Shown here: positions 33,017 to 47,047 of the stretch, piece after piece | How positions within the stretch are numbered: the first letter of the stretch is position 1 | How the letters are laid out: each line of letters starts with the position of its first letter | Source: an uncultured candidatus Brocadiaceae bacterium | GTDB lineage: Bacteria; Planctomycetota; Brocadiia; SM23-32 | Assembly (NCBI GenBank): GCA_964521715.1 | Contig: CAZFSS010000002.1 | Location: forward strand, 151,828 to 215,827 | Reading direction: 5' to 3' | DNA: 64,000 nucleotides | Notes under the pieces: generated by a model | The model's input: the letters and a program-made list of their open reading frames with translations, nothing else | Told to the model about the DNA's origin: nothing | Database searches by the model: none | Translations under genes and position numbers: made by a program

Positions 33017-34177
33017 ATGGACGGGCCGACCGGGGGCAGCGCCGTGGAGCGGGGTGGCGTGAGCGCCGGCGACTTCGCCACCGAGGTCCTTGCCGGCCTG
33101 GTCCTGGTGGGCCTGGCTGCAACGCGGCTCCACAACTTCCTGCTCTTCCACAGCCTCGCCGAGATCTTCAGCATCGTCGTCGCGTGCGGCACCTTCATGG
33201 TCGTGTGGAACGCACGCCGGTACGTCGTCAACAACTACGTGATGTTCATCGGCATCGCGCTGTTGTTCGTCGCCCTGGTGGACACGCTCCACATGCTGGC
33301 GTACAAGGGCATGGGGGTGTTCCAGACGCCGGGCAGCAACCTGACCGTCCAGCTCTGGATGGTGGCCCGCTTGCTGCAGGGCGTCTCGTTCCTGCTCGCG
33401 CCCATTTTCATCCGCCGCAGGCTCAGGGCCGTTCCCGTGCTCGTCTTCTACGTCCTGGCCACGTTCCTCCTGCTCGCGTCGGTCTTCTACTGGGACCTGT
33501 TCCCCGTGTGCTACACGGAGGGCGCCGGGCTTACGGCCTTCAAGAAGGCCAGCGAATACGCCGTATGCGCCGTCCTGATCGGCTCGATGTTCCTGCTGCT
33601 GAAGAACCGCCGCTCGTTCGACCGCCACGTGGTGAGCGTGCTGGTCCTGTCCCTGGGGTTCACCATAGCCTCCGAGCTCGCCTTCACGCTGTACGTGGAC
33701 GTCGACAGCCCCGTCAGCATGCTGGGCCACCTGCTGAAGATCGTGGCCTTCTACCTCATTTACAAGGCCGTCATCGAGGCCAGCCTCGTGCGGCCCCACC
33801 GGACCCTATACAGGGAGTTGAAGGAAAGCGAGGAGGCCCTGCGCGCCAGCGAGCTGCGCTTCCGCCGAATGGTCGACGAGAGCCCGGACGGCGTGGTCGT
33901 GGTCAGCCAGGGCGGAATCGTCCGCTACATGAACCCCGCTTCCCAGGCGCTCCTGGGCGCGAAGGCCGACGCGATGATCGGCAAGCCTTTCCAGCACTCA
34001 ATCAAGCCGGGCAAGACGACGCTGCTGAGCATCGCGCCCGTGGAAACGGGCACGGTCACCCTCAGGGCCCGCATGGTCGGGACGCAGTGGGTCGGCGAGC
34101 CGGCCTACCTGCTGACCCTGCACGACATAAGCGACCAGCACCCCGTCGACACGGAGCCGCAGGCCCGGCTGCCGTAG
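33017..34177 (+). CDS. Membrane sensor protein (MASE-like multi-TM N-terminus + PAS domain), no output domain
   Basis: A seven-TM-like N-terminal region is followed by a PAS fold (RFRRMVDESPDGVVVVSQGGIVRYMNPASQALLG). The protein stops straight after the PAS domain, at the island boundary. Confidence 0.6.
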   Translation: MDGPTGGSAVERGGVSAGDFATEVLAGLVLVGLAATRLHNFLLFHSLAEIFSIVVACGTFMVVWNARRYVVNNYVMFIGIALLFVALVDTLHMLAYKGMGVFQTPGSNLTVQLWMVARLLQGVSFLLAPIFIRRRLRAVPVLVFYVLATFLLLASVFYWDLFPVCYTEGAGLTAFKKASEYAVCAVLIGSMFLLLKNRRSFDRHVVSVLVLSLGFTIASELAFTLYVDVDSPVSMLGHLLKIVAFYLIYKAVIEASLVRPHRTLYRELKESEEALRASELRFRRMVDESPDGVVVVSQGGIVRYMNPASQALLGAKADAMIGKPFQHSIKPGKTTLLSIAPVETGTVTLRARMVGTQWVGEPAYLLTLHDISDQHPVDTEPQARLP

Positions 34178-34435
34178 GCGCGGCGCGGTTTCTGAGGGCA
34201 GATGTGGGCCGGGGCAGCGCAAGCGAGAGGATCAACCGAAAGACCAGAAGGCGGGGCAGTCGGACGGCCCGGGAGGCCGAGATCGACGAGCTGGCTGCTG
34301 ACCTCTGGGGCCTGTCGAAGGCGGAGCTGAAGGACATCCAGGATTCCTTGGCGGACCTAATGGAATGAGTGGTTGAGGCGTCGGCGGACATGTCGGGTCA
34401 AGTCACACATCACGGGTGGGTCGAAGGGGAATCCA

Positions 34436-36049
34436 ATGCCGGGTACTAGGCCGTTCGGTACGAAAGACATAGGCGGCGAGCTATTGCCGATCCTCACGCG
34501 GGGCATCTACCGTGACCCGCTGGACACGCTTAGGGAGTACGTCCAGAACTCCATAGATGCTGGCGCTCACCATATCCAGGTCGCGATCACCTCTGACCTC
34601 ATCTCGGTGCGCGACGACGGAGCGGGCATGACGCGACAGGTCGCCGAGCGCGCCATCCGCTTGGGCATGTCCGACAAGGACCCTACTCAGGACGTTGGTT
34701 TCAGGGGCATAGGTGTCTACAGCGCTTTTAACGTATGCCAGAAGCTGGAAATCTACACGCGCCCGCGAGCCGGAGAGCCTTCCAAGTTGGTGTTCGACTT
34801 TGCGAGAACCCGCGAGAAGCTTCAGGACGAAGAGCAGCGCAGGCTGAACGGCAAGCCCTCAGGGCTCGACTTGGTGGCCCTATTGGGCGACTCGGTGTGG
34901 GTCGAGGAGTGCAGCGAGTGCCCAATAGCAGCAAGCGGCACAGTGGTGTTACTGGTAGGCATCCGGGGTGACGTGTACGGCCGACTGACAGACCGAGGGG
35001 CGGTCCGTCAGTATCTGGAGTCAGTTGTACCGCTACCGTTCCCGCCGGCGTTTGCCTATAAGCATCAGATAGAGGCCAGGTTCCGACAGGATGATTACCG
35101 GGTGGTGGACATGGAACTCACCATAGACGGACGGAACGAGGCCATTTGCAGGCCGTACCGGGACTCCATGTTCACACACGGCAAAGGGATTGGGCCGAAG
35201 TTCTACCCTCTGAGCCATGTTCTGGCTCGCGGCAAGCTGGGGTTCGCCTGGGTCTGCCTTAACGACGCACGTAGGTACCTGCCCGACCGGGCATTGCGCG
35301 GCCTTCTGGTCAAGAAGTTCGGCTTCTCTGTTGGTGACAGGGATTACTTCGCCCGCTACTTCTCGCGCCAGGTCTTCAACAACCGTGTGACGGGCGAGAT
35401 CATCGTTACCCGTGACGAGCTCGTTCCGAACGCTGCAAGGTCTGAGTTCGAACCTAGCCCCATCCGAGATGCTCTTTACCTCGCCTTCTCCAACCTGGCG
35501 GCCAAGGTTTCGAGGTGGGCCAACCAGGTTCAAGAGGAACTGAAAGCCAGAGAAGAGCTTCAGGAGATCTCTCCTGAGGTCTTCAGAATCGCCGAAGAAG
35601 TTCCTCTGTCGGAACGGGACGTACCTAAGCTATTGTCTCTGAATAACGTACTCTCCTCCTACGAGAGCAGGCTCAGGACTCACCACGCGAAACTGAAGAA
35701 GATGAACCCAGGGCTGCTCAGGCGGACGCTGACGGCGCTTGCTCAGACCCAGGACACCATCGCCGAGGTGCTAAGCGCTCAACAGCTCGGAGGTGAGGCG
35801 CGCAAAGGGCGGGTAAGACGGGCCGGGAGGCTGCTGGTTACCGCACCATCCGAAGAGGAGCTCGCCCACGCGCGGGAGAAACCCCATACCCTGGTCGACA
35901 TCGTTGGCTATCTCGGCATGGACCTCAGCGCTGACGCCACCCTTCTTCTTGAGTACATCGACAGGGAAGTCCTGCAGCGGAAGCTCTCGCCTGTAGAGTA
36001 CGCCGAGTGCATGGCGGATCTCCTTGCGTTCCTGGAGGAGAGCCTGTGA
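34436..36049 (+). CDS. GHKL-superfamily ATPase (Hsp90/MORC-like, HATPase_c_3) with ~400-aa C-terminal region
   Basis: Bergerat-fold motifs are present: N-box LREYVQNSIDAGA, G1 box ISVRDDGAGM, G2 box VGFRGIGVYSAF (compare Hsp90 IGQFGVGFYSAF). An RBS-like GAAGGGGA precedes the ATG at 34436. The stop is 2 nt before the next gene. Confidence 0.7.
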   Translation: MPGTRPFGTKDIGGELLPILTRGIYRDPLDTLREYVQNSIDAGAHHIQVAITSDLISVRDDGAGMTRQVAERAIRLGMSDKDPTQDVGFRGIGVYSAFNVCQKLEIYTRPRAGEPSKLVFDFARTREKLQDEEQRRLNGKPSGLDLVALLGDSVWVEECSECPIAASGTVVLLVGIRGDVYGRLTDRGAVRQYLESVVPLPFPPAFAYKHQIEARFRQDDYRVVDMELTIDGRNEAICRPYRDSMFTHGKGIGPKFYPLSHVLARGKLGFAWVCLNDARRYLPDRALRGLLVKKFGFSVGDRDYFARYFSRQVFNNRVTGEIIVTRDELVPNAARSEFEPSPIRDALYLAFSNLAAKVSRWANQVQEELKAREELQEISPEVFRIAEEVPLSERDVPKLLSLNNVLSSYESRLRTHHAKLKKMNPGLLRRTLTALAQTQDTIAEVLSAQQLGGEARKGRVRRAGRLLVTAPSEEELAHAREKPHTLVDIVGYLGMDLSADATLLLEYIDREVLQRKLSPVEYAECMADLLAFLEESL

Positions 36050-36050
36050 C

Positions 36051-37010
36051 ATGGCGGCGATGTTCGCGGACCATCCACGAAAGAAGGTAGTGCGCGAGGA
36101 CTGGGATACTCCCGTCCTCAACTTCCTGCACGACAGGTGGAACCACGGATACTTCTACTTTGGGCTGCCGGGGCCACAAGCCTTGGACATCAGGCTGTGG
36201 CGCGAGATGATCCGCCGGGTGGTCGCGTTCGAAATCGAGGAAGCGCACTCCAGAGATCCGAGGAGATCGATTGTCGAGCTCAACAGGCAGTTGGCGCTAC
36301 TTGGGGTGCCGTACTCAGTGTACTGCGGTCCTTTGGAGGAAGTCGTGTTGGGCGGCGTAGACTATGATGGTAGGCAGCTCGAGATCAAGGAGTTTGTTAC
36401 GCTGTTCAACCTGGACTTCTGCAATTCCATCACCGGAGCAGTGCGAACGGCTCATGGCAAGAGATACCTGCGTTTCGAGGCCCTCCGAGAGATCGTGAGC
36501 TTCCAACGACGACTCTACCGTGCTGCAGGGGTCTCCCGGTTTGTGATGCTGGTCACGGTACAGGATGCTTTCCACGTCCGACAGCTTAGGAGCTTCGTGT
36601 CAAACCCCGACCTGCCATCGGAGACAGCCGACTACTTAAGTGAGGTCCTAAGGGACAGAGGTCTACCGGACAAGGCCTTCGCATGCGATACCGCTCTACT
36701 GAAGGCCTTCGTCTTCACGTGTCTCAGAGAGTACCTGAGAGGGCAAAACGCCACTTCAGTCTTTCTGCCGCCCGTCGTCTACTATGGTGCTGCCGGACAT
36801 ACTCAGATGATGCACTTCGTCGTCGTGTGCGCCATGGAGAGGGAGGATACCGCCCTGGTTGAGGATCCCCAGGGGGCGGCGGATTTCCTTGGCATGCAGG
36901 TGTTGCGGGCCGACGAGCGGGATATCAAACCAGAGGCGGCTTGCGGCCCAGTGCGCGCTGTGGTCACTGATAGCGTCTCAGTTGTCAGGAACTACCTCTT
37001 CGATGAGTAG
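36051..37010 (+). CDS. Hypothetical protein, possible divergent Rossmann-fold (methyltransferase-like) protein; middle gene of the island operon
   Basis: 320 aa. A beta1-loop-helix-beta2 pattern (YFYFGLPGPQALDIRLWREMIRRVVAFEIEE) and a later LFNLDFCNS resemble SAM-MTase motifs I/II/IV, but weakly. The start is 2 nt after the upstream stop and the end overlaps the next gene by 8 nt. Confidence 0.55.
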   Translation: MAAMFADHPRKKVVREDWDTPVLNFLHDRWNHGYFYFGLPGPQALDIRLWREMIRRVVAFEIEEAHSRDPRRSIVELNRQLALLGVPYSVYCGPLEEVVLGGVDYDGRQLEIKEFVTLFNLDFCNSITGAVRTAHGKRYLRFEALREIVSFQRRLYRAAGVSRFVMLVTVQDAFHVRQLRSFVSNPDLPSETADYLSEVLRDRGLPDKAFACDTALLKAFVFTCLREYLRGQNATSVFLPPVVYYGAAGHTQMMHFVVVCAMEREDTALVEDPQGAADFLGMQVLRADERDIKPEAACGPVRAVVTDSVSVVRNYLFDE

Positions 37011-38535
37011 AACTGCGAAGCACGTCCAGGCAGTAAGGGGCTTCAGCCGCAGTCGACTCGGCGGGCAGCCTCGCCGTCGGACTGCGCTGCTCATCAACCC
37101 GCCCGTCTACGACACGCAATACTGGGCGCAGTGGAGCCAGCCGTACGGCTTGCTGAGAATCGCCGCACTGCTCAGGAAACACCGCTACAAGCGCATCGAG
37201 CTGTTCGACTTCATGGAAACCGATGGACAGCGAAAGGTCTACCAGCACCGGATCAACCGCGAAGAGGAGTACTCTGAGCGAGACCAGCCCTCCCGCCCTA
37301 CTCAGCCGGTGAAGATCGGCAAGAACGGTGAAGAGCTAAGCCTGTACAAGCAGCACTTCGGCAAGACGTGGGCGGAGTTCGACGAGTGGCTCGACGAGAA
37401 GGGCTTCACCGGCAAGCATCCGCCGCACGAAGTCTGGATCTCCGCCATCATGACTTACTGGTGGGAGAGCGTACGAGACCTGACCGTCCGGTTGCGGCGC
37501 CGGTTCGGCAAGCACACCACGATCCTACTCGGTGGTGTTTACCCAACGCTCTGCCCTCAGCACGCGGCCAGGATGACCGAGGCCGACATCGTGGTCGCAG
37601 GCGAGGTGAAGGAGGCGAACGACCTCTGGACGGACCTGTCCCTCTATGAGACCCCGCCTGACTATGCCATCATCACCCCGACGCGCGGCTGCCCCTACAA
37701 CTGCGGCTATTGCGCTCAGAAGGCCCTGAACCGCGGCCGTCGGAAGCCCTGCCGTCGCGACCCAGACGACCTGCTGGCGGAAATGAAGGACAAGCACGAC
37801 CGCTACGGCATCCGCGAGTTCGCGTTCTACGCCGACTACCTCCTCTTCGACTACGAGCACTGCTTGCTGCCACTGCTCCGGCGCATCGTTGAAGAGGGGT
37901 TGCCGTTCAAGCTGCACGCACCAGAGGGCCTGCACGTGCGCACGCTATGCCAGTCCCAGGAGCTCGTCGACCTGCTGAAGGCCTCTGGCTTCGAGAAGGT
38001 CTACCTGCCCTTCGAGCACATCGACCAAGACTACCTAGCTGCCCTGAACCGGGACCATGTGGGGATTGAACACTTCGTGAAGGCAGTGCGTATGATCGAG
38101 AAAGCGGGGTTCCGCATGCGCAACCTGGAGGTCAACGCCTTCGTTCTGTACGGCCTGCCCCAGGAGAAGATCGACGACGTGGTAAGGAGTGTGCTCTTTG
38201 TCTCAGAGGTGGTGGGCTCGATAATCCCCATGCTATTCACCCCCGTGCCGACGACTCAGGTCTACGAGGACTTTCTGCCATTCATCCGGGAGCGAGGATG
38301 GGATCGGGACCTGCACATGCTGAACGGCAAGCTCTATCCGTTCCTCGAGCTGAACGAAGGCTCCGTGAGCGACTACGTTGACCTCCAACGGCTGATGTAT
38401 ATGCTGAACGCGCACTACCGCAGCGCTTCCTTCCGTCCCTTTGGCAACACTCTAGTGGCCCAAAGCTTCCGAAACAACCTAGCGAACGGATTCAGTGAGC
38501 GCGTCGCTCGGATGGCGGCGGGTGCCGACACGTAA
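37003..38535 (+). CDS. B12-binding domain-containing radical SAM protein (class B radical SAM)
   Basis: The N-terminal LLINPPVYDTQY...LLRIAALLRKHRYKRIELFDF matches the cobalamin-binding domain of class B rSAMs. The canonical CX3CX2C cluster motif (TRGCPYNCGYCAQ) follows at about residue 240. 510 aa. ATG overlaps the end of the upstream gene (GATGAGTAG). Confidence 0.75.
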   Translation: MSRTAKHVQAVRGFSRSRLGGQPRRRTALLINPPVYDTQYWAQWSQPYGLLRIAALLRKHRYKRIELFDFMETDGQRKVYQHRINREEEYSERDQPSRPTQPVKIGKNGEELSLYKQHFGKTWAEFDEWLDEKGFTGKHPPHEVWISAIMTYWWESVRDLTVRLRRRFGKHTTILLGGVYPTLCPQHAARMTEADIVVAGEVKEANDLWTDLSLYETPPDYAIITPTRGCPYNCGYCAQKALNRGRRKPCRRDPDDLLAEMKDKHDRYGIREFAFYADYLLFDYEHCLLPLLRRIVEEGLPFKLHAPEGLHVRTLCQSQELVDLLKASGFEKVYLPFEHIDQDYLAALNRDHVGIEHFVKAVRMIEKAGFRMRNLEVNAFVLYGLPQEKIDDVVRSVLFVSEVVGSIIPMLFTPVPTTQVYEDFLPFIRERGWDRDLHMLNGKLYPFLELNEGSVSDYVDLQRLMYMLNAHYRSASFRPFGNTLVAQSFRNNLANGFSERVARMAAGADT

Positions 38536-38567
38536 CAGCAAAACCCGAACCTAGCCGGAGGGTCGCC

Positions 38568-39221
38568 ATGTTCGCAAGAGTCTGGTTGTCTGCCGTTCTG
38601 GCCCTTTTGCTCGTGCTCGGCGGCGCCGCGCCCGCGGCCCCTCAGCCGGGCCAGCCTCTGCCCCTGCTCGCCCCGCAGACCGAAGGCGGTAAGCCTCTGA
38701 TGCAGGCGCTCAAGGCGCGCCAGTCGTCGCGCTCCTACAGCAGCGAGCCGCTGCCGGCGCAGGTGCTGTCCAACCTTCTCTGGGCCGCCTGCGGCGTGAA
38801 CCGCCCCGAATCCGGAAAGCGCACCGCGCCCACCGCCGTCAACTGGCAGGAGATAGACGTCTACGTCGCCACGGCCGACGGGCTCTACCTGTTCGACGCG
38901 CACGCCCACGCGCTCAACCCAGTGCTGAGCGAGGACATCCGCGCGCTGACCGGCACCCAGCCCTTCGTAGCGCAGGCGCCTGTCAACCTGGTCTACGTGG
39001 CGGACTTCGCGCGCATGGGCCGGGCGTCCCAGGCGGACAGGGATTTCTACTCCGCCACGGACACGGGCTTCATCAGCCAGAACGTCTACCTTTACTGCGC
39101 TTCCGAGGGACTGGCAACCGTGGTCCGGGGCCTGGTTGACCGCCCCGCCCTGGCCAAGCGCATGGGCCTGCGGCCCGACCAGAAGATCATCCTCGCGCAA
39201 TCGGTCGGCTACCCGCAGTAG
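38568..39221 (+). CDS. Nitroreductase family protein with N-terminal signal peptide
   Basis: A signal peptide is followed by nitroreductase-fold motifs (KARQSSRSY...LSNLLWAACGVNRPESGKRTAPTA...). 217 aa. Confidence 0.65.
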   Translation: MFARVWLSAVLALLLVLGGAAPAAPQPGQPLPLLAPQTEGGKPLMQALKARQSSRSYSSEPLPAQVLSNLLWAACGVNRPESGKRTAPTAVNWQEIDVYVATADGLYLFDAHAHALNPVLSEDIRALTGTQPFVAQAPVNLVYVADFARMGRASQADRDFYSATDTGFISQNVYLYCASEGLATVVRGLVDRPALAKRMGLRPDQKIILAQSVGYPQ

Positions 39222-41234: not shown

Positions 41235-44009
41235 ATGCAGCACCAGGAGCAGCATCCGCAAATGGCACGCATCCAGAAGCCGAAGCGGGAAGGCACGGGC
41301 GGCGCCGCCGTCGCCCTTGCAGCGATCGTTCTGGTCGCCGCGTTTCAGGCGGCTTCACCGGCAGAAGGGACGGACATGAAGAACCTGGTTTCCAACGGTG
41401 ACTTCTCGGAGATCTGGCTCGGCAGCCCCGCAGGATGGGAAACTTCGGGAAACGAGCAGAACGTGGACCAGCGCCTGGAGGCCGTCCTGGAAGGCGGCAA
41501 CCGTTACGCGAAGCTAACCTGCACGCGCTGCGAGGGAAGCGGCGGCTCGGACCACGCGATGATCGCGCAGATTGGCGGCGCCGCGCTCGAAGAGGGCAAG
41601 TCCTATGAGTTCTCCTGCCGGGCGCGCGCCGAGGGCCTCAAAGGGCGGACCGTCAACGTGGCCATGCGCGACACGGACGGCTGGCACGAGTGCGGGCTGA
41701 GCGCCGACCTCGTCCTGCGCGCCTCCTGGAAGGAGTTCCGCAACGTGTTCCAGGCAACGCGCTCGGTGGGGCCGACGGGGCGGCTCCAGTTCTGGTACAC
41801 CGAGCCGGGCACGTTCTACCTGGACGACGTCAGCATCGTCGAGGTCGCCGTCGGCGATGTCGAGTTCACCGACGTCGTCCCGCCAACAGGCGGCAAGAAC
41901 CTGGTGCCGAACGGCTCCTTCGAGGTCGGGGCGGGCGGATGGTCATCGTTCGGCAATCCGGCTGGCTGGGGCAATATGTGCCGCTTGCACGGGACGATCG
42001 AGCCGTCAGGCGGCGCCGACGGCCGGGCGTTCCTGCGCGTGCCGATGGGCGAAGGCCGGGCGCCCACCTTCTACTTCGACTACTTCGCGCCCGTTGCCAG
42101 GCGGCCAACGATGGCGCTGGCCGCGAACCTGGGATGGATCCCCGTCGAGGCCGGCCAGCCCTACACGCTCTCCTGCGACATGCGGGCCGACGTCGACGGC
42201 GTCGCGGCCACCATCGGCGCGTTCGCCAAGGCGCCGGAGGGCCGTTCGTGGGAGAACTCGCACCACCACGCGCAGAAGGTCAGGCTCTCGACCTCATGGC
42301 AGCGCTGCTCCCTCACGTTCCGCCCCGCCTACCGCTACGTCTTCGTCACCGTCGGGCCGGACCTGGATGAGGATGCGCGCGTGGACGTGGACATCGACGC
42401 CGTCCAACTGGAGAGGGGCGAGCGGGCGACGCCCTTCGAGCCGCGCAGCCCGGTGGAGGTGGCCGTCGAGCCCTCCGCGCCCGGTGGCATCTTCGCGGTC
42501 GGCGAGCCGGCCGCGCTCCACCTGCGGGCGTGCAATCACAGCGACGGCGCTGAGGCCGTGCGCTTCTCCTTCCAGGTCGCCGACTTCTTCGGCCGGCCCG
42601 TCGCGCTGCCGGGGGCCGCGCTGGAGGTCGCCCCGCGCGGGATCGCGGAGGGGCAGGTGCAGCTCCCCGGGGACTGGCGGGGCTACTACCGTGTCCGCGC
42701 CAGCTACGACTCCGGGAGCGGCAGCAGCTCCCAGGACGTGCGCCTCGCCTTCGTCCCGCCGCAGACGCGTGACGATTCGGTCATCGGCATCAATCACGCG
42801 TTCAACGACGCCTACCTGATCCAGCTCGCGCGCAAGGCCGGCATCACGTGGTACCGCGACTGGTCGCTCAAATGGCAGCACCTGGAGCCCGAGCCCGGCC
42901 GGCTCGACTGGCAGGTCGGCGACGTGCAGATAGACCGGGTGCTCAGAGAGGGCGTGCACCTGATGGCGCTGCTGCCGCCGTTCCCGTCCGCGAACTGGTC
43001 ATCGACCGCCGACCCGGACATGCAGGCGTCCTCGTGGGAGGCCGGCCGCCAGGCGTGGGCGCCGAAGGAGCCGCAGAAGCTCGCCGAGTTCGTCGGAAAG
43101 GCCGTCTCGCGTTACAAGAACCGAGTCAAGGTCTGGGAGTTCCTGAACGAGCCGATCTTCACCTCTTACGCCCTGCCGCGCGCGGGCGGCTACGAGCCGG
43201 CCGACTACGTCCGGCTGCTGGCCCCGGTTTCGGCGGCAATGCGGCAGGCCGATCCCGACTGCAAAGTCATGGGCGGCATCGCCGGCGGGACGGGCACCTA
43301 CACGCGCGAGGTCATCGGCGCCGGGTGCCTGGACTACGTGGACATCTTCAACCTGCACATCTACCCCGGGGCCGCCGCGCCCGAATCGTTCCTGGACGGC
43401 ATGGACGCGCTTCTGGCCCTGATGGACGAGCACGGCGGGCGCAAGCCGATCTGGATGACCGAGTTCTCCTACTACGCCGAGGACGACCTGCCGCGCCGGC
43501 CCTTCATCCCGGCCCCGGACTCCTGGTCGGAATCGCGCCTGCTGGCCGACGAGCGCGAATGCGCCGAGATGACGATCCGGTTCTGCGTCATCATGATGTC
43601 GCGCGGGGTGGAGAAGGTCTTCATCCACTCCGGCTCGAGCGGCACTGTGAACATGCCGAACACGGAATGCTGCGTCTTCAAGTACGGCGGCGCGCCGGCG
43701 AAGGTGCTTCCGGCCATCGCAGTGTTCACGGACTTGATGGGACCGTCGCCGAAGTGCGTCGGCCAGGCGCGGCTCGGCGAGGACGCGTACATCTTCGGGT
43801 TCGAGACGGGGGAGCGCAGTGTGCTGGTGTGCTGGAGCGCGTTCGACGAGGCGGAGGTCGCGCTGCCCGAGGGCGCGCGGTGCCTCGACTTCATGGGCAA
43901 CGAGCTGCCGGCGCGCCGCGTCCCCCTCACCCCGACGCCCATCTACCTGATCGGCCCGCCCGGCGCGGGCGAACAGCTCGGCCGGTCACTGGGCAAGGTT
44001 GGCTCTTGA
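41235..44009 (+). CDS. Secreted glycoside hydrolase (clan GH-A) with two N-terminal carbohydrate-binding-module-like domains
   Basis: RBS AGAAAGGA then ATG at 41235, with a signal peptide. Two CBM4/9-like beta-sandwich segments (NLVSNGDFSE...; NLVPNGSFEVGAGGW...) are present. The catalytic core carries acid/base VWEFLNEP and nucleophile PIWMTEFS. Confidence 0.7.
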   Translation: MQHQEQHPQMARIQKPKREGTGGAAVALAAIVLVAAFQAASPAEGTDMKNLVSNGDFSEIWLGSPAGWETSGNEQNVDQRLEAVLEGGNRYAKLTCTRCEGSGGSDHAMIAQIGGAALEEGKSYEFSCRARAEGLKGRTVNVAMRDTDGWHECGLSADLVLRASWKEFRNVFQATRSVGPTGRLQFWYTEPGTFYLDDVSIVEVAVGDVEFTDVVPPTGGKNLVPNGSFEVGAGGWSSFGNPAGWGNMCRLHGTIEPSGGADGRAFLRVPMGEGRAPTFYFDYFAPVARRPTMALAANLGWIPVEAGQPYTLSCDMRADVDGVAATIGAFAKAPEGRSWENSHHHAQKVRLSTSWQRCSLTFRPAYRYVFVTVGPDLDEDARVDVDIDAVQLERGERATPFEPRSPVEVAVEPSAPGGIFAVGEPAALHLRACNHSDGAEAVRFSFQVADFFGRPVALPGAALEVAPRGIAEGQVQLPGDWRGYYRVRASYDSGSGSSSQDVRLAFVPPQTRDDSVIGINHAFNDAYLIQLARKAGITWYRDWSLKWQHLEPEPGRLDWQVGDVQIDRVLREGVHLMALLPPFPSANWSSTADPDMQASSWEAGRQAWAPKEPQKLAEFVGKAVSRYKNRVKVWEFLNEPIFTSYALPRAGGYEPADYVRLLAPVSAAMRQADPDCKVMGGIAGGTGTYTREVIGAGCLDYVDIFNLHIYPGAAAPESFLDGMDALLALMDEHGGRKPIWMTEFSYYAEDDLPRRPFIPAPDSWSESRLLADERECAEMTIRFCVIMMSRGVEKVFIHSGSSGTVNMPNTECCVFKYGGAPAKVLPAIAVFTDLMGPSPKCVGQARLGEDAYIFGFETGERSVLVCWSAFDEAEVALPEGARCLDFMGNELPARRVPLTPTPIYLIGPPGAGEQLGRSLGKVGS

Positions 44010-44040
44010 CCACGCTGAAGCGATCCAGCTAAAAGCCCTT

Positions 44041-44964
44041 TCACTTCTCGCCCCCCCGGTCCGTCTCGACATGTCCATCATCACCATCCTGACGGCGCGC
44101 CCGCCGCACCGCCTCAATGAGCAGGTTGATGAGATCTTCGCGAGCCCGCATATAGCCTGACTGGCCAACGGCGGCCTCCTTCAGCATGTCGCTGGCGCTG
44201 GGTCTCTCGCGCTTGCGTTCGGCAAGATAAAGGAGGACAACCAGATAGATCACATAAGCCGTCAGAAGCATACAGACAATGCCCCATACAGCTGGGTTCC
44301 GCACGGGGCTCGACCCCCTGCTGACGCAACCTGCCAGATCGCCCAATGAGCACTGCTTCGGACTGGGGCCCTCATCTTGGCTGACAACGATGTTATCAGT
44401 TACTGTGGGAGCGACTAAAGGCACTTGCTGGCCAAGCTCAAATCGAAAGATCGCCAGAAGGAAAGCTCCGGGCGCTAGGCGCTGACCTTCGTCGCGTGCT
44501 CTCACTATCAGGAAGCTAGGACGAGTTGCGTTGCCTCCGTTCCAAGCTTCCAGCTTGCGACGGCAATCGCCGTCGAGTTCACCCCACACGCCAGGATATA
44601 CCTGGACGAACGTCCTTGTTGCGCCGCTTGGAAGCGGAACTGTGGCGCTGACTTTGCGCGCAGTTCCGCTTCCTACGTTGACGACCAATAGCGACAACTG
44701 AACCGAGGCCACAGCCGTGCTATCGGCCTCAACCACGGAGTTCCACGTCGCACACCACCGGACATCAGGGCCTGCGAGTAAGCGTGCCACAGCAGGCCAG
44801 ACGAAGGGAATCACAATCAAGATGACAGCGGCGAGCCCGCGGAGGATGTGCTTTAAGCTGCGCGTGATCCAGGCCCCTAGCCAGCAGTTGACCCCTCCGG
44901 TCCAGCCGGATCCGAGACCGCAGGATACTCCCCCTCCCGCACCGCAGGCGCGAACGCACTCCAA
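44041..44964 (-). CDS. Hypothetical 2-TM membrane protein in a low-GC cassette
   Basis: N-terminal TM (LAAVILIVIPFVWPAV) and C-terminal TM (VWGIVCMLLTAYVIYLVVLLYL). Lower GC than the surroundings. The 5' end overlaps the upstream ORF by 88 nt, so the true start is uncertain. Confidence 0.35.
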   Translation of the reverse strand: MECVRACGAGGGVSCGLGSGWTGGVNCWLGAWITRSLKHILRGLAAVILIVIPFVWPAVARLLAGPDVRWCATWNSVVEADSTAVASVQLSLLVVNVGSGTARKVSATVPLPSGATRTFVQVYPGVWGELDGDCRRKLEAWNGGNATRPSFLIVRARDEGQRLAPGAFLLAIFRFELGQQVPLVAPTVTDNIVVSQDEGPSPKQCSLGDLAGCVSRGSSPVRNPAVWGIVCMLLTAYVIYLVVLLYLAERKRERPSASDMLKEAAVGQSGYMRAREDLINLLIEAVRRARRQDGDDGHVETDRGGEK

Positions 44965-45515
44965 AGCTGGTCGAAAAGCTGCAACAGCCGACCAGCCGTC
45001 TTAGGGTCGTTGAAGCACGCCTCTGCTTGGACGGTCAAGTCGGCCTCGTTGGTTGCCCCTGCAAACTTGTACGGATGTGGATCCTCCAGGCGATAGCCGC
45101 GGTCATCGACCACTGTGAAGTGTGGCACGCGATCGCCATACTCACGGCTTCCACTGAAACGCAGGGCAAACCTGTCCGGGAAGTCCTGGCTCAGTGCTGC
45201 GACGCTTTTGCAGAGCTGTGCGGTGCCACCGGCTGGGCGTTCGTCCCAGACCAGGATGCGGGTATAGAGGTCTCTGGCCCTGTTTCGAAGAAGTGGGGCG
45301 AGCTCATCGAAAACGACATGGGGAAGCTCACCCGTCAAGAGGCAGACGGTAGAGCCAGCGCTCTCGATCAACTCCTTCAACACGAAGATGGCCGAGGTGA
45401 TAGTGCGGTTTGGTATACGTGCGGCGCCTCTCGTCTTTCTCTGCAGGCGCACCATCCCCCGGTACTCGACGGAAAGGTCGTCTTCTCGGTATTTGAATGG
45501 CTTCTCGTCACCCAT
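44877..45515 (-). CDS. Hypothetical protein (low-GC cassette, upstream partner of the 2-TM protein)
   Basis: 212 aa with no family recognised. Lower-GC codon usage. Confidence 0.4.
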   Translation of the reverse strand: MGDEKPFKYREDDLSVEYRGMVRLQRKTRGAARIPNRTITSAIFVLKELIESAGSTVCLLTGELPHVVFDELAPLLRNRARDLYTRILVWDERPAGGTAQLCKSVAALSQDFPDRFALRFSGSREYGDRVPHFTVVDDRGYRLEDPHPYKFAGATNEADLTVQAEACFNDPKTAGRLLQLFDQLWSAFAPAVREGEYPAVSDPAGPEGSTAG

Positions 45516-46150
45516 GGCCGGTGCCTCAACCAGAATCGACTATCAGGCTAACCAGAGGATACACTCTCGAAGAACTTCAGGAGGGCGATCGTACGGACTT
45601 GGCTGGTTTGCTACCCCTGAACAGGGGAATAGGCGCAAATCAAGGGAAACTCAGAAAAAGCAAGGCGAAAATGAGCCGCCAGCCTCGTCCTCCGGCGCCG
45701 TCGCAGGCGCCTTACGGCGGCGGCGACTCATACGGTTCTGGGACTTGCCCCCGCGGAGGCCGAGGTCGGCCCCTGCTGCCGGACCCGAACAACTCACTCA
45801 ACCGCGCCAACGTGTCCATGGTACCCATGGCCTGCTCCCATCGGTAGAGTAGGGACTGCATTCACAATGTCTCTGCTCACAGTGGCCCCCCATCCGGCTG
45901 GGCCCTCCCCGCTTCTTCACCATGTCGCCACACTGTAGCACCACGGAAACGGCATGTCAAGGCCAATTCCGACGTTTTCGCGATTTTCCAGACCTCCGAG
46001 AACGTGGTTCCACAGCCCACGACACATGCACAGGAAGGACCTCCTTCTAGGTCATCGGATAGGGCTCGTTGCGCAAAACGGGGATATGTCGAGTGGCAGT
46101 TTCTGGGTAGGTTTCGTAAAATCCACTCTATCAAAGTCGCGACACCCTTG

Positions 46151-47047
46151 TCAAGTAGCCAGATCTGGTTCTTGAACTGCCTGTGGGCCAATGCCGAAGC
46201 CCAGCATCCGGAATTGGGACGCCAGGCGGTCCCGGGCCCTCGCCAGGGGATCACCGCGAGGGATCAGGGGCTTGCCCGCGCCGAAGTCCGAGTTGCAGTC
46301 GGCAAAGGCGGCGTGGCCGCGGGCGTTGTCCCCGCGCGCGCTGACGTGCTGCAACCCGTCCTTCCACCGGTACACGTAGCTGATGTCCTCGTCGGCCGGG
46401 TTCCAGGTGTAGAGCTTGCCCGCGCGCCGGAACGCCTCGAGCAGCGCCTTCGCCTGACCGCTCACCCTCGGCGGATAGCCGCCGAGCCTCAGCGCCTCCT
46501 GCCGCTCGAAGACCATCTGGCCCTCGAAGACGTTGTGGCACGGGCCGCGCACCTCAAATCTCTCCCTCGGGCCAACGGCCCACCAGGCCGCGCGCGCCTT
46601 CGCGCAGCGCGGCAATGCACAGTGATCAGTGCAGAGTGATAAAGGAACGGATTCAACGGCTACGTCAAGGGGCCAGGGGCGGCCCGTTAGGGCCGAGACG
46701 CACATGGTGAGGTGCCAGGGCAGGTACAGATCGTCGTCGTCCCAATGCGCCACGAGCGGTGTCCCGGCAGCTTCGAGAAGGGCCTGCCGTTTGTGGCCGA
46801 GCGTCGGGAACCGCACCGGATGGTTGACCACGTGGACGCAGTCGGGCGCGCTCCCGAGGGCGATGGGCACCGGCGCGTCGTTGAGGACGAGGAGATGCTT
46901 CTCGCCGGGGTAGTCCTGCAGGAGGAAGCAGGCGACGGCGTCGCGCAGGCGCTCAAACCGACCGTACGTCGGACACAAGGCCGTCACGGACGGCCAGTGG
47001 CCAGTGCTGAGTGGCGAGTGATGAGTGGAGGGCAACAGATCAGGCAT
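46151..47047 (-). CDS. Glycosyltransferase family 2 protein
   Basis: VTALCPTYGRFERL...LLVLNDAP is the GT2 N-terminal signature. Its start overlaps the stop of the upstream GT2 gene by 8 nt. Confidence 0.65.
   Translation of the reverse strand: MPDLLPSTHHSPLSTGHWPSVTALCPTYGRFERLRDAVACFLLQDYPGEKHLLVLNDAPVPIALGSAPDCVHVVNHPVRFPTLGHKRQALLEAAGTPLVAHWDDDDLYLPWHLTMCVSALTGRPWPLDVAVESVPLSLCTDHCALPRCAKARAAWWAVGPRERFEVRGPCHNVFEGQMVFERQEALRLGGYPPRVSGQAKALLEAFRRAGKLYTWNPADEDISYVYRWKDGLQHVSARGDNARGHAAFADCNSDFGAGKPLIPRGDPLARARDRLASQFRMLGFGIGPQAVQEPDLAT

Follow-up and report, generated by a model that had tools for sequence, protein, structure and literature searches.

A mobile three-gene cassette coding for a GHKL ATPase, a predicted methyltransferase-fold protein and a radical SAM enzyme, a candidate DNA-directed conflict system

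In a 64,000-nucleotide stretch of DNA from an uncultured candidatus Brocadiaceae bacterium (the window), we found that three adjacent genes form a cassette which is known from dozens of uncultured microbes and travels together as a horizontally mobile, low-GC island. Their combination corresponds to no PADLOC system, to no curated family (NCBIfam) and to no description in the searchable full-text literature, in line with the original prediction that it is not a described module. Because the cassette is mobile and linked to DNA machinery of the restriction type, we think that it most likely represents a so far undescribed system of DNA-directed immunity or modification. The more precise reading, i.e., a self-contained DNA-acting cassette of the modification-dependent, restriction-modification-like immunity or conflict class, we infer from sequence and consider about evenly balanced between true and false. 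The features of the locus are the following:

34436..36049, + strand: gene A, 537-aa GHKL (Bergerat-fold) ATPase, apparently of Hsp90/MutL/sacsin type
36051..37010, + strand: gene B, 319-aa protein with a predicted class-I SAM-methyltransferase fold, Trm1-like; sister of the uncharacterised PP_RS20740 family
37003..38535, + strand: gene C, 510-aa radical SAM enzyme of class-B-like architecture, its N-terminal domain being Rossmann/B12-binding-like
34423..34431, + strand: Shine-Dalgarno-like purine-rich stretch GAAGGGGAA, read from the sequence, 4 nt 5' of the gene A ATG
34200..38600, no strand: low-GC island bearing the cassette, GC 0.58-0.64 against about 0.68 around it

The three ORFs are intact and lie on the + strand between 34436 and 38535, with a GC content of 59.9% in the core against 68.1% in the flanks (20 kb each side), which confirms the predicted operon on a low-GC island. 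The TGA of gene A ends at 36049 and the ATG of gene B starts at 36051, leaving a gap of 1 nt (TGA-C-ATG) and not the 2 nt first given, while genes B and C do overlap by the 8 nt announced (ATGAGTAG, 37003-37010); the three genes are translationally coupled. A consensus scan revealed no sigma-70-like promoter 5' of gene A, the promoter-like sites of the region being internal only, and no + strand terminator was found 3' of gene C. Around the cassette, there are no meaningful direct or inverted repeats that could serve as mobile-element borders, no tRNA was found at its borders, and no Rfam element, cobalamin riboswitch included, is present at the locus. A 54-aa ORF 5' of gene A (34204-34368), whose tail resembled by eye the C-terminal helix of a Type IIG enzyme (TaqI_C-type), has no Pfam match and was set aside.

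That the trio is conserved as a unit in other genomes was borne out by a neighbourhood survey of 80 metagenomic B loci. Gene A is directly upstream of gene B in 62 of 65 loci, and in 46 of the 50 loci for which the two flanks are available B is accompanied by both A and a radical SAM gene. Since the trio recurs in dozens of unrelated contigs, this arrangement is far beyond chance. The genes flanking the cassette are unrelated from locus to locus, and the GC content of the core is lower than that of the flanks in all 27 homologous loci (mean difference of -7.9 points). Its distribution is rare and patchy, with 402 clusters at 50% identity among 1.84 billion proteins.

Gene A carries a Pfam HATPase_c_3 domain (E 1.3e-13; 51.6 bits for a cut-off of 25), and its three ATP-binding boxes, all present and invariant among 37 homologues, place it in the GHKL superfamily: the N box (E34, N38, D41), the G1 box (D60-G62-G64-M65) and the G2 box (G88-F89-G91-G93). 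The family profile matches MutL, HtpG, TRAP1 and MORC3 over residues ~13-177 only, and its fit to MORC is equal or inferior to that to MutL, HtpG, TRAP1 and sacsin; a SACS domain match is found in 16 of the 37 family members. Beyond the GHKL domain, the protein comprises a conserved central region of ~200 aa, with motifs that include LRGLLxKKxGFSxGxR and PNAARxxFE in the homologue alignment, and a C-terminus that is helical and variable. In MORC and paraMORC families the GHKL domain is followed by an S5-fold transducer domain with a conserved basic residue; in gene A, the alignment with PDB and Pfam profiles is limited to residues ~13-177, and the single-sequence AF2 model (pLDDT 36) is unusable. 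Of the Hsp90/MORC-type GHKL originally proposed, the GHKL part and its Hsp90 side hold: gene A is probably of Hsp90/MutL/sacsin type, whereas a MORC or paraMORC identity is putative. It has no conserved helicase or nuclease partner. Like the trio, MORC and paraMORC systems have an N-terminal GHKL with all ATP-binding motifs, a sporadic and laterally mobile distribution and an operon link to a methyltransferase-type gene. However, they associate with helicases and nucleases, neither of which is in the trio; a superfamily II helicase is found in about 70% of MORC neighbourhoods, nucleases are also common, and a radical SAM partner is not mentioned in that work (0 occurrences of "radical"; Iyer, Abhiman and Aravind 2008, PMC2292703).

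Gene B has no match in our local Pfam copy. Its AF2 model (pLDDT 94.4) shows the fold of class-I SAM methyltransferases, with Trm1 as the nearest of them. The model displays seven strands in a Rossmann-like fold, motif I is glycine-rich, strand 4 is followed by a motif IV loop, and the protein retains the SAM-loop and N-L-D-F catalytic-loop motifs. The earlier description as "Rossmann-like" was thus correct, and the fold can now be specified further. Structurally, B is matched best by Trm1, TlyA, RlmO, TYW2 and RsmD-type RNA methyltransferases. Because these nearest neighbours are tRNA and rRNA methyltransferases, RNA is a possible substrate. B shares 9-13% sequence identity with Trm1 (the tRNA m2,2G26 methyltransferase) and differs from it by an N-terminal helix of its own, in which K11 and R15 are invariant, by a C-terminal half of ~150 aa, and by being a mobile operon gene where Trm1 is a housekeeping gene. 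Membership of the PP_RS20740 family (NCBIfam NF047698 / Pfam PF28273), itself described as a hypothetical protein (PMC9630843), was rejected: the match reaches 27.7 bits over residues 8-54 only, against a curated cut-off of 200 bits, and the precomputed Pfam match is "faint". B rather represents a sister family. In P0375, a distant relative of B, a C-terminal extension that resembled a PD-(D/E)xK nuclease by eye had no Pfam support.

Gene C belongs to the radical SAM superfamily, with a Pfam Radical_SAM core of 65.7 bits (cut-off 29.5) and a CxxxCxxC motif (CPYNCGYC, residues 230-237) whose C230, C234 and C237 do not vary among 26 homologues. The radical SAM part of the original prediction is therefore secure. 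The match to the B12-binding domain PF02310 (26.9 bits) falls short of the gathering score (32.1), so that "class B" describes the architecture of C, and cobalamin use is putative. The class B methylases TokK, CysS, TsrM and Fom3, and their look-alike AprD4, have the same succession of an N-terminal Rossmann-type domain and a radical SAM core with CxxxCxxC. The nearest solved relatives are borderline (AprD4 and 9ccb with E ~0.01, TokK 0.44, CysS 0.63), and AprD4 is an enzyme of this architecture that we take to be B12-independent. Known class B substrates are small molecules, peptides or proteins, and we know of no class B enzyme that acts on DNA. More than 750 homologues of C exist, the best sharing 60-80% identity across phyla.

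Two lines tie the cassette to DNA conflict systems, namely the families found next to it and its larger relatives. Among 143 ORFs neighbouring the trio, Pfam families of restriction-system DNA methylases are the most frequent (N6_Mtase, 5; Eco57I, 4), followed by PIN toxins (3) and integrases, with Type ISP, HsdM_N and ResIII also represented; further trios adjoin transposases and RES-Xre toxin-antitoxin genes, and in the window an MNT/HepT toxin-antitoxin pair lies 1.8 kb downstream of the cassette. The anticipated co-localisation with defence genes is thus observed for restriction-modification, toxin-antitoxin and integrase genes. The defence-island signal is only moderate, because most neighbours are housekeeping genes and restriction-modification methylases occur in about 5 of 26 loci. 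No helicase or nuclease recurs beside the minimal trio in the loci surveyed.

The second line comes from cassettes that share gene C. Its subfamily is found at 7 loci (Neomoorella glycerini CP046244, Desulfovirgula and Anaerolineae MAGs) in a NurA-HerA-Type IIG-radical SAM cassette. Comparison with PDB entry 7f6d confirmed the NurA and HerA assignments, and the Type IIG enzyme matches PADLOC PDLC03630 with >1100 bits. Like the trio, this NurA-HerA cassette, likewise undescribed as a system, joins an ATPase, a methyltransferase-type enzyme and a radical SAM protein (60-70% identity to gene C), and is mobile with an integrase nearby; it differs by having a full Type IIG enzyme and HerA-NurA in place of the GHKL and B. 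Larger versions of the A-B-C locus also encode a pair homologous to this NurA-HerA (NurA-like, 29% identity, E 2e-36; HerA, 37%, E 1e-119), and IMG/VR contigs contain related radical SAM and GHKL pairs with a SNF2 helicase and two ParB_N-like proteins. NurA-HerA is confined to the extended trio variants, and SNF2 to the IMG/VR radical SAM-GHKL loci.

At the family level, no component matches a described anti-phage system in PADLOC-DB v2.0.0. In this database, A matches the TmtA, MzaB and Type II REase models over its GHKL domain only (E 2.5e-7 or weaker), B has no match, C has a single one (PDC-M51A, E 0.0046), and the mad2/mad8-type matches concern proteins of related or neighbouring loci and none of A, B or C. 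Dnd/Ssp phosphorothioation, Dpd 7-deazaguanine, BREX and MADS follow the same logic as the trio, in that several genes on an island together form a module marking DNA, with ATPases and swappable, optional nuclease arms, but have no component in common with it at the family level. These multi-enzyme DNA modification-restriction systems likewise recruit HerA-type ATPases (PMC10853773).

The original proposal of a nucleic-acid modification-plus-sensing system finds contextual support in the Trm1-like B, the NurA-HerA-Type IIG cassettes and the extended trios, and we retain it as what we infer from this context. In such a system, B, through its Trm1-like amino-methyltransferase fold, would bind SAM and a base in DNA, and C would perform a radical, probably methyl-transfer, step at or beside the same site, creating an unusual self-mark. 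A would dimerise on ATP like MutL, Hsp90 or MORC and clamp DNA, and may license or couple B and C, or read the marked state. NurA-HerA would be the degradative arm in the larger relatives; the minimal trio, having no recognisable nuclease, would thus rely on the central domain of A, on host nucleases or on modification alone. In a tentative elaboration that we think rather doubtful, B would first N-methylate an exocyclic amine, after which C, acting as a radical SAM methylase of the B12 type, would add a methyl group to the carbon so introduced or to an adjacent one, by analogy with the step-wise methyl extension of CysS. The resulting ethyl-type or hypermodified base would be a self-mark that phage methylases cannot copy, read or enforced by A, or by NurA-HerA/Type IIG in the sister cassettes.

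We count several observations against DNA immunity. There is no recognisable nuclease or helicase within the minimal trio; B and C are absent from plasmids (PLSDB) and from viral contigs (IMG/VR), where the relatives of A are distant A-like GHKLs only; the acidic residue ending strand 2 of B varies across the family (E, Q or D); gene C is unusually conserved for a defence gene (mean column identity of 67%), and its subfamily is also found solitary, amid unrelated genes, in three Anaerolineae genomes.

Gene C might, alternatively, be the killing or blocking arm, which upon infection would make an antiviral nucleotide analogue like viperin or damage nucleic acid by hydrogen abstraction; B would then regulate by binding SAM or a nucleotide, and A would serve as an ATP-driven sensor switch (abortive-infection-type). 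Prokaryotic viperins (pVips) are established radical SAM defence enzymes that make antiviral nucleotide analogues, and are the only ones of which we are aware. Such an effector would fit a trio devoid of nuclease, as well as the place of C as the hub common to cassettes with Type IIG-HerA-NurA, GHKL-B and GHKL-SNF2-ParB, and its conservation, far higher than that of its partners, would fit a universal small-molecule or nucleic-acid substrate. However, pVips are single-gene systems from another radical SAM family, with neither methyltransferase nor GHKL partner, and no viperin model is among the NCBIfam or PADLOC matches of C. Moreover, the intact methyltransferase-type active-site loop of B argues for catalysis over sensing, the fact that C is paired with either a Type IIG methylase or a methyltransferase-fold protein points to a role in modification, and constitutive radical chemistry on self molecules needs a control mechanism, none being evident. 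We regard this effector reading as unlikely.

It is quite improbable, in our view, that B and C modify tRNA or rRNA, for instance as a mobile resistance or translation-tuning module like Cfr or Erm, with A as an Hsp90-like assembly factor. The structural matches of B would agree with it, and radical SAM RNA methylases do exist (RlmN and Cfr, the latter being mobile), but related cassettes contain DNA enzymes as partners (Type IIG, NurA-HerA, SNF2, ParB-like), the neighbour enrichment is in DNA methylases of restriction systems, and the distribution of the trio is rare and patchy. As for the cofactor or natural-product tailoring initially offered as an alternative, many B12-type radical SAM enzymes do act in tailoring, and C weakly matches the NCBIfam models of P-methyltransferases, BchE, HpnJ, BzaD and the like, in all cases however far below the family cut-offs. 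We reject this reading, which we hold to be very improbable, because, across 26 long loci, no biosynthetic genes recur beside the trio; furthermore, the trio is self-contained amid unrelated housekeeping genes, and GHKL ATPases are not normally part of such pathways.

If the DNA-directed reading is right, the cassette would belong to an undescribed family of mobile conflict systems whose hub is a radical SAM enzyme combining with at least three partner sets: GHKL and a Trm1-like fold; Type IIG and HerA-NurA; or GHKL, SNF2 and ParB-like proteins. Beyond the nucleotide products of viperin, we know of no precedent for radical SAM chemistry on DNA in immunity; were base modification true, C would be the first known radical SAM enzyme acting on DNA in this context, and would come with a new epigenetic base. 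Work on the cassette could bring to light a DNA modification not seen before, an additional role of Hsp90/MutL-type ATPases, and enzymes of a new class for use in biotechnology. With its three coupled genes in ~4.1 kb, the cassette is directly amenable to heterologous expression. Even without a defence role, B and C would be two uncharacterised families with intact predicted active sites and a strong genomic link.

We demonstrated that genes A, B and C form a conserved, mobile and low-GC unit, whose members are translationally coupled and retain intact catalytic signatures.

Genes of the cassette and the toxin-antitoxin pair downstream of it
34436-36049, + strand: gene A, GHKL ATPase, intact ORF of 537 aa
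36051-37010, + strand: gene B, class-I SAM-methyltransferase-fold protein, intact ORF of 319 aa
37003-38535, + strand: gene C, radical SAM enzyme, intact ORF of 510 aa
40330-41131, + strand: MNT (Polbeta/NTP_transf_2) and HepT-like toxin-antitoxin pair, 1.8 kb downstream of C

The original prediction of three intact + strand ORFs at 34436-38535 was confirmed with two corrections, which concern the A-B junction and a sub-threshold B12-binding score in C. A purine-rich GAAGGGGAA lies 4 nt 5' of the ATG of A. The gap between A and B is 1 nt and not 2 nt as first reported (the TGA of A ends at 36049 and the ATG of B starts at 36051); the 8-nt overlap of B and C is exactly as described (TAG of B at 37008-37010, ATG of C at 37003). 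GC content is 0.58-0.64 over the cassette versus ~0.68 around it (59.9% for the core versus 68.1% in the 20 kb on each side), and searches for flanking repeats, tRNAs and Rfam elements found none at the island borders.

The genome contexts of B homologues show A-B and then a radical SAM gene, in surroundings that are otherwise unrelated. By scanning metagenomes with the B alignment, we confirmed 166 loci and fetched 80 of them for a tblastn census. A lies directly upstream of B in 62 of the 65 testable loci, a radical SAM gene is found at most 1.2 kb downstream of B in 44 of 55, and both partners are present in 46 of the 50 loci with both flanks available; the three genes, grouped at first from the window alone, are thus kept together as a unit. 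The A-B order is constant; C is variably placed, being upstream or on the opposite strand in some loci. The radical SAM partners fall into three homologous subtypes, i.e., a short form of ~370 aa (35 loci), the 'L013 type' of ~540-700 aa, named after locus L013 (16 loci), and the ~510-aa form of the window (10 loci), all with CxxxCxxC and an N-terminal Rossmann-like segment. Two further trios were reached from C homologues: one in an Acidoferrales MAG (L186; A-family E 5.7e-194, B-family E 1.7e-76), the other on a 4.2-Mb contig (L184), where a more distant GHKL and a distant B relative (E 1e-12) are accompanied by a DUF87/HerA-like ATPase, a RES-Xre toxin-antitoxin pair and an IS21 element. 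The GC of the A-B-C core is below that of the flanks in all 27 long loci (mean difference -7.9 points), whose host flanks range from 35% to 69% GC, and different trio loci have no flanking genes in common.

Judging from its sequence, A looks like an active GHKL ATPase of the Hsp90/MutL/sacsin/MORC kind. Indeed, it matches HATPase_c_3 in Pfam (51.6 bits), and its Bergerat ATP-binding boxes do not vary among 37 aligned homologues: the N box REYxQNxxDA (E34, N38, D41), the G1 box DDGxGM (D60, G62, G64, M65) and the G2 box GFRGIGxYS (G88, F89, G91, G93). Matches of the family profile to MutL, HtpG, TRAP1 and MORC3 are confined to residues ~13-177 (E ~1e-6), and 16 of the 37 members carry a sacsin (SACS) domain in Pfam. 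The central region is well conserved (VVPLPF, RPY, GFAWVCxNDAR, LRGLLxKKxGFSxGxR, TGE...PNAARxxFE), and the C-terminal third is helical with little conservation. Two A homologues (L149 2733-4307 and L163 2892-4499) each contain a single in-frame TAA stop, which may reflect pseudogenes, sequencing errors or recoding.

B gave no match in the Pfam scan. With 44 homologues as input, AF2 produced a confident model of it (pLDDT 94.4, pTM 0.93), for which Foldseek returns 352 PDB matches at E<=1e-3; the best 50 of these are all class-I SAM methyltransferases. In this model, the invariant residues are predicted to sit at methyltransferase motif positions: Y36-G38-L39-P40 and D46 in the SAM loop after strand 1, with G41 nearly invariant; G93 and E96 after strand 3; and N120-L121-D122 at the end of strand 4, followed by the nearly invariant F123 and C124. 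The N120-L121-D122 motif is reminiscent of D-(L/I)-D-P-F-G, the catalytic loop in Trm1, and of the (D/N)PP(Y/F) loop found in amino-methyltransferases. The B superfamily is rare: at 90% identity it comprises 216 clusters in a set of 5.8 billion proteins, and at 50% identity 402 representatives in a set of 1.84 billion. Further B homologues come from a Pyrinomonadaceae MAG and a Nanoarchaeota MAG. The sole curated family touching B is PP_RS20740 (NF047698, equivalent to PF28273), named for a hypothetical protein of Pseudomonas putida (PMC9630843); membership was rejected, the match reaching 27.7 bits against a cut-off of 200 and covering residues 8-54 only. A distant member of the superfamily (P0375, 454 aa) has a C-terminal extension of ~150 aa containing D...ECK, whose likeness to a PD-(D/E)xK nuclease was seen by eye only and has no Pfam support.

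C had been described as a B12-binding radical SAM enzyme. The radical SAM assignment stands (Radical_SAM in Pfam, 65.7 bits; CPYNCGYC at residues 230-237, behind an N-terminal Rossmann-type domain); the B12-binding match, at 26.9 bits, is under the gathering score of 32.1. Every NCBIfam match of C is far under its family cut-off, and the solved structures nearest to its family profile are AprD4 and 9ccb (E ~0.01), TokK (0.44) and CysS (0.63), so that B12-dependence is only putative. The subfamily is large (>750 clusters), with 60-80% identity across Chloroflexota, Bacillota, Bipolaricaulota and Acidobacteriota and a mean column identity of 67%.

Close C homologues (60-70% identity) also sit in a second conserved cassette, apparently undescribed so far, which associates a NurA-like protein (~377 aa), a HerA ATPase (~560-590 aa), a Type IIG restriction/methylase enzyme (~1090 aa; PADLOC PDLC03630, >1100 bits) and the radical SAM gene, with DUF3800 or PDDEXK_3 as optional small genes. 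It was found at L018-L021, L093, L095 (Neomoorella glycerini CP046244, 1628004-1645524) and L185, and adjoins an integrase at L093. Its NurA and HerA profiles match the Deinococcus HerA-NurA complex (PDB 7f6d) with E-values of 1.8e-5 and 5.5e-61, respectively. Three extended loci (L013, L014, L176) combine a NurA-like protein, HerA and a second GHKL with A, B and the radical SAM gene. In these loci the NurA-like protein and HerA are homologous to their counterparts in the Type IIG cassette, with identities of 29% (E 2e-36) and 37% (E 1e-119), respectively. On three IMG/VR contigs, all devoid of B, a GHKL of this second type comes immediately after an L013-type radical SAM gene (L179 5891-9461; L181 1408-8783; L183 6376-13478). 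Next to the L181 pair, Pfam identifies an SNF2 helicase and two proteins weakly resembling ParB_N, and ORFs of L183 match these neighbours in size and N-terminal sequence. The window-type radical SAM gene stands solo among unrelated genes in three Anaerolineae loci. Since the radical SAM enzyme is combined with ATPases and DNA-acting proteins in several alternative sets, we regard it as the hub of these systems, and it is mainly for this reason that we take DNA as their arena. The second-type GHKL also heads a different operon in IMG/VR locus L180 (7989-16033), with a UvrD-like helicase, a 358-aa protein and a large DEAD/Helicase_C protein (Pfam) and no radical SAM gene; L182 (549-7421) has ORFs of similar sizes and order.

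The contextual links of the cassette comprise restriction enzymes, NurA-HerA, SNF2, ParB-like proteins, toxin-antitoxin pairs and integrases. Among the 143 ORFs within 4.5 kb of the trio at 26 loci, the commonest Pfam families are N6_Mtase (5), Eco57I (4) and PIN (3), together with Type ISP domains, HsdM_N, ResIII and phage integrase (2), and PADLOC detects Type I, Type II and Type IIG methylase models and mad2. At L177, an apparent Type I restriction-modification system, called from gene sizes, order and the neighbour census, lies directly 3' of the trio (ORFs of 510, 409 and 967 aa). This defence-island signal is real but moderate, because most other neighbours are housekeeping genes.

The role first proposed, i.e., nucleic-acid modification plus sensing, is partly supported: the context favours it, and the function as such we infer. 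We give even chances to a DNA-directed conflict or modification system, which may involve new DNA chemistry. In such a system, B would bind SAM and a nucleobase, and C would perform a radical step, probably a methyl transfer, producing an unusual mark. A, in the manner of MutL, Hsp90 or MORC, would serve as a dimerising clamp driven by ATP that couples or licenses the enzymes or reads the mark, and in the larger versions degradation would fall to NurA-HerA. That the cassette carries out a specific two-step hypermodification chemistry is rather unlikely, and the chief weakness of a restriction-modification-like model is that the minimal trio has no recognisable nuclease.

On the other hand, C could be a viperin-like or DNA-damaging effector, which we hold to be quite unlikely. 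An RNA-modification cassette, to which the structural neighbours of B are the one pointer, seems distinctly improbable, and the natural-product or cofactor cassette raised in the original prediction is very improbable, as no biosynthetic genes recur. We file the cassette, under the preferred reading of a DNA-directed system, among island-borne, GHKL-associated, modification-type conflict systems.

The original prediction did not recognise the combination as any described module, and this holds: PADLOC v2 gave no system-level match, and full-text literature searches returned no described system joining a radical SAM enzyme with a GHKL/MORC ATPase, HerA/NurA or Type IIG. The founding MORC/paraMORC paper describes helicase and nuclease partners and does not mention radical SAM enzymes (PMC2292703), whereas such helicase and nuclease partners are missing from the trio. 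Membership in PP_RS20740, viperin or any PADLOC system was rejected, and the cassette is probably not a MORC/paraMORC member. The cassette is compact, conserved, undescribed and directly testable.

Several genes surround the island in the window. A nitroreductase-family gene (38568-39221, +) starts 32 nt after C in the same orientation, and no + strand terminator separates the two; it is probably outside the system, since it is not kept beside the trio in other organisms. Upstream, a MASE3 and PAS sensor gene (33017-34177, +) terminates exactly at the left border of the low-GC island and encodes only 386 aa, lacking an output domain; in L095, the full-length relative reaches 949 aa and includes HisKA, HATPase_c and REC domains. 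The island insertion may have cut this gene short. Between it and A, a 54-aa ORF (34204-34368, +) without a match in a Pfam scan ends ...EIDELAADLWGLSKAELKDIQDSLADLME, a tail that looks like the helix at the C-terminus of TaqI_C-type (Type IIG) enzymes; the ORF could be what is left of a restriction-modification gene. Another patch of low GC (0.60), at 44000-46200, carries ORFs on the - strand that encode 307 aa (membrane-like) and 212 aa.
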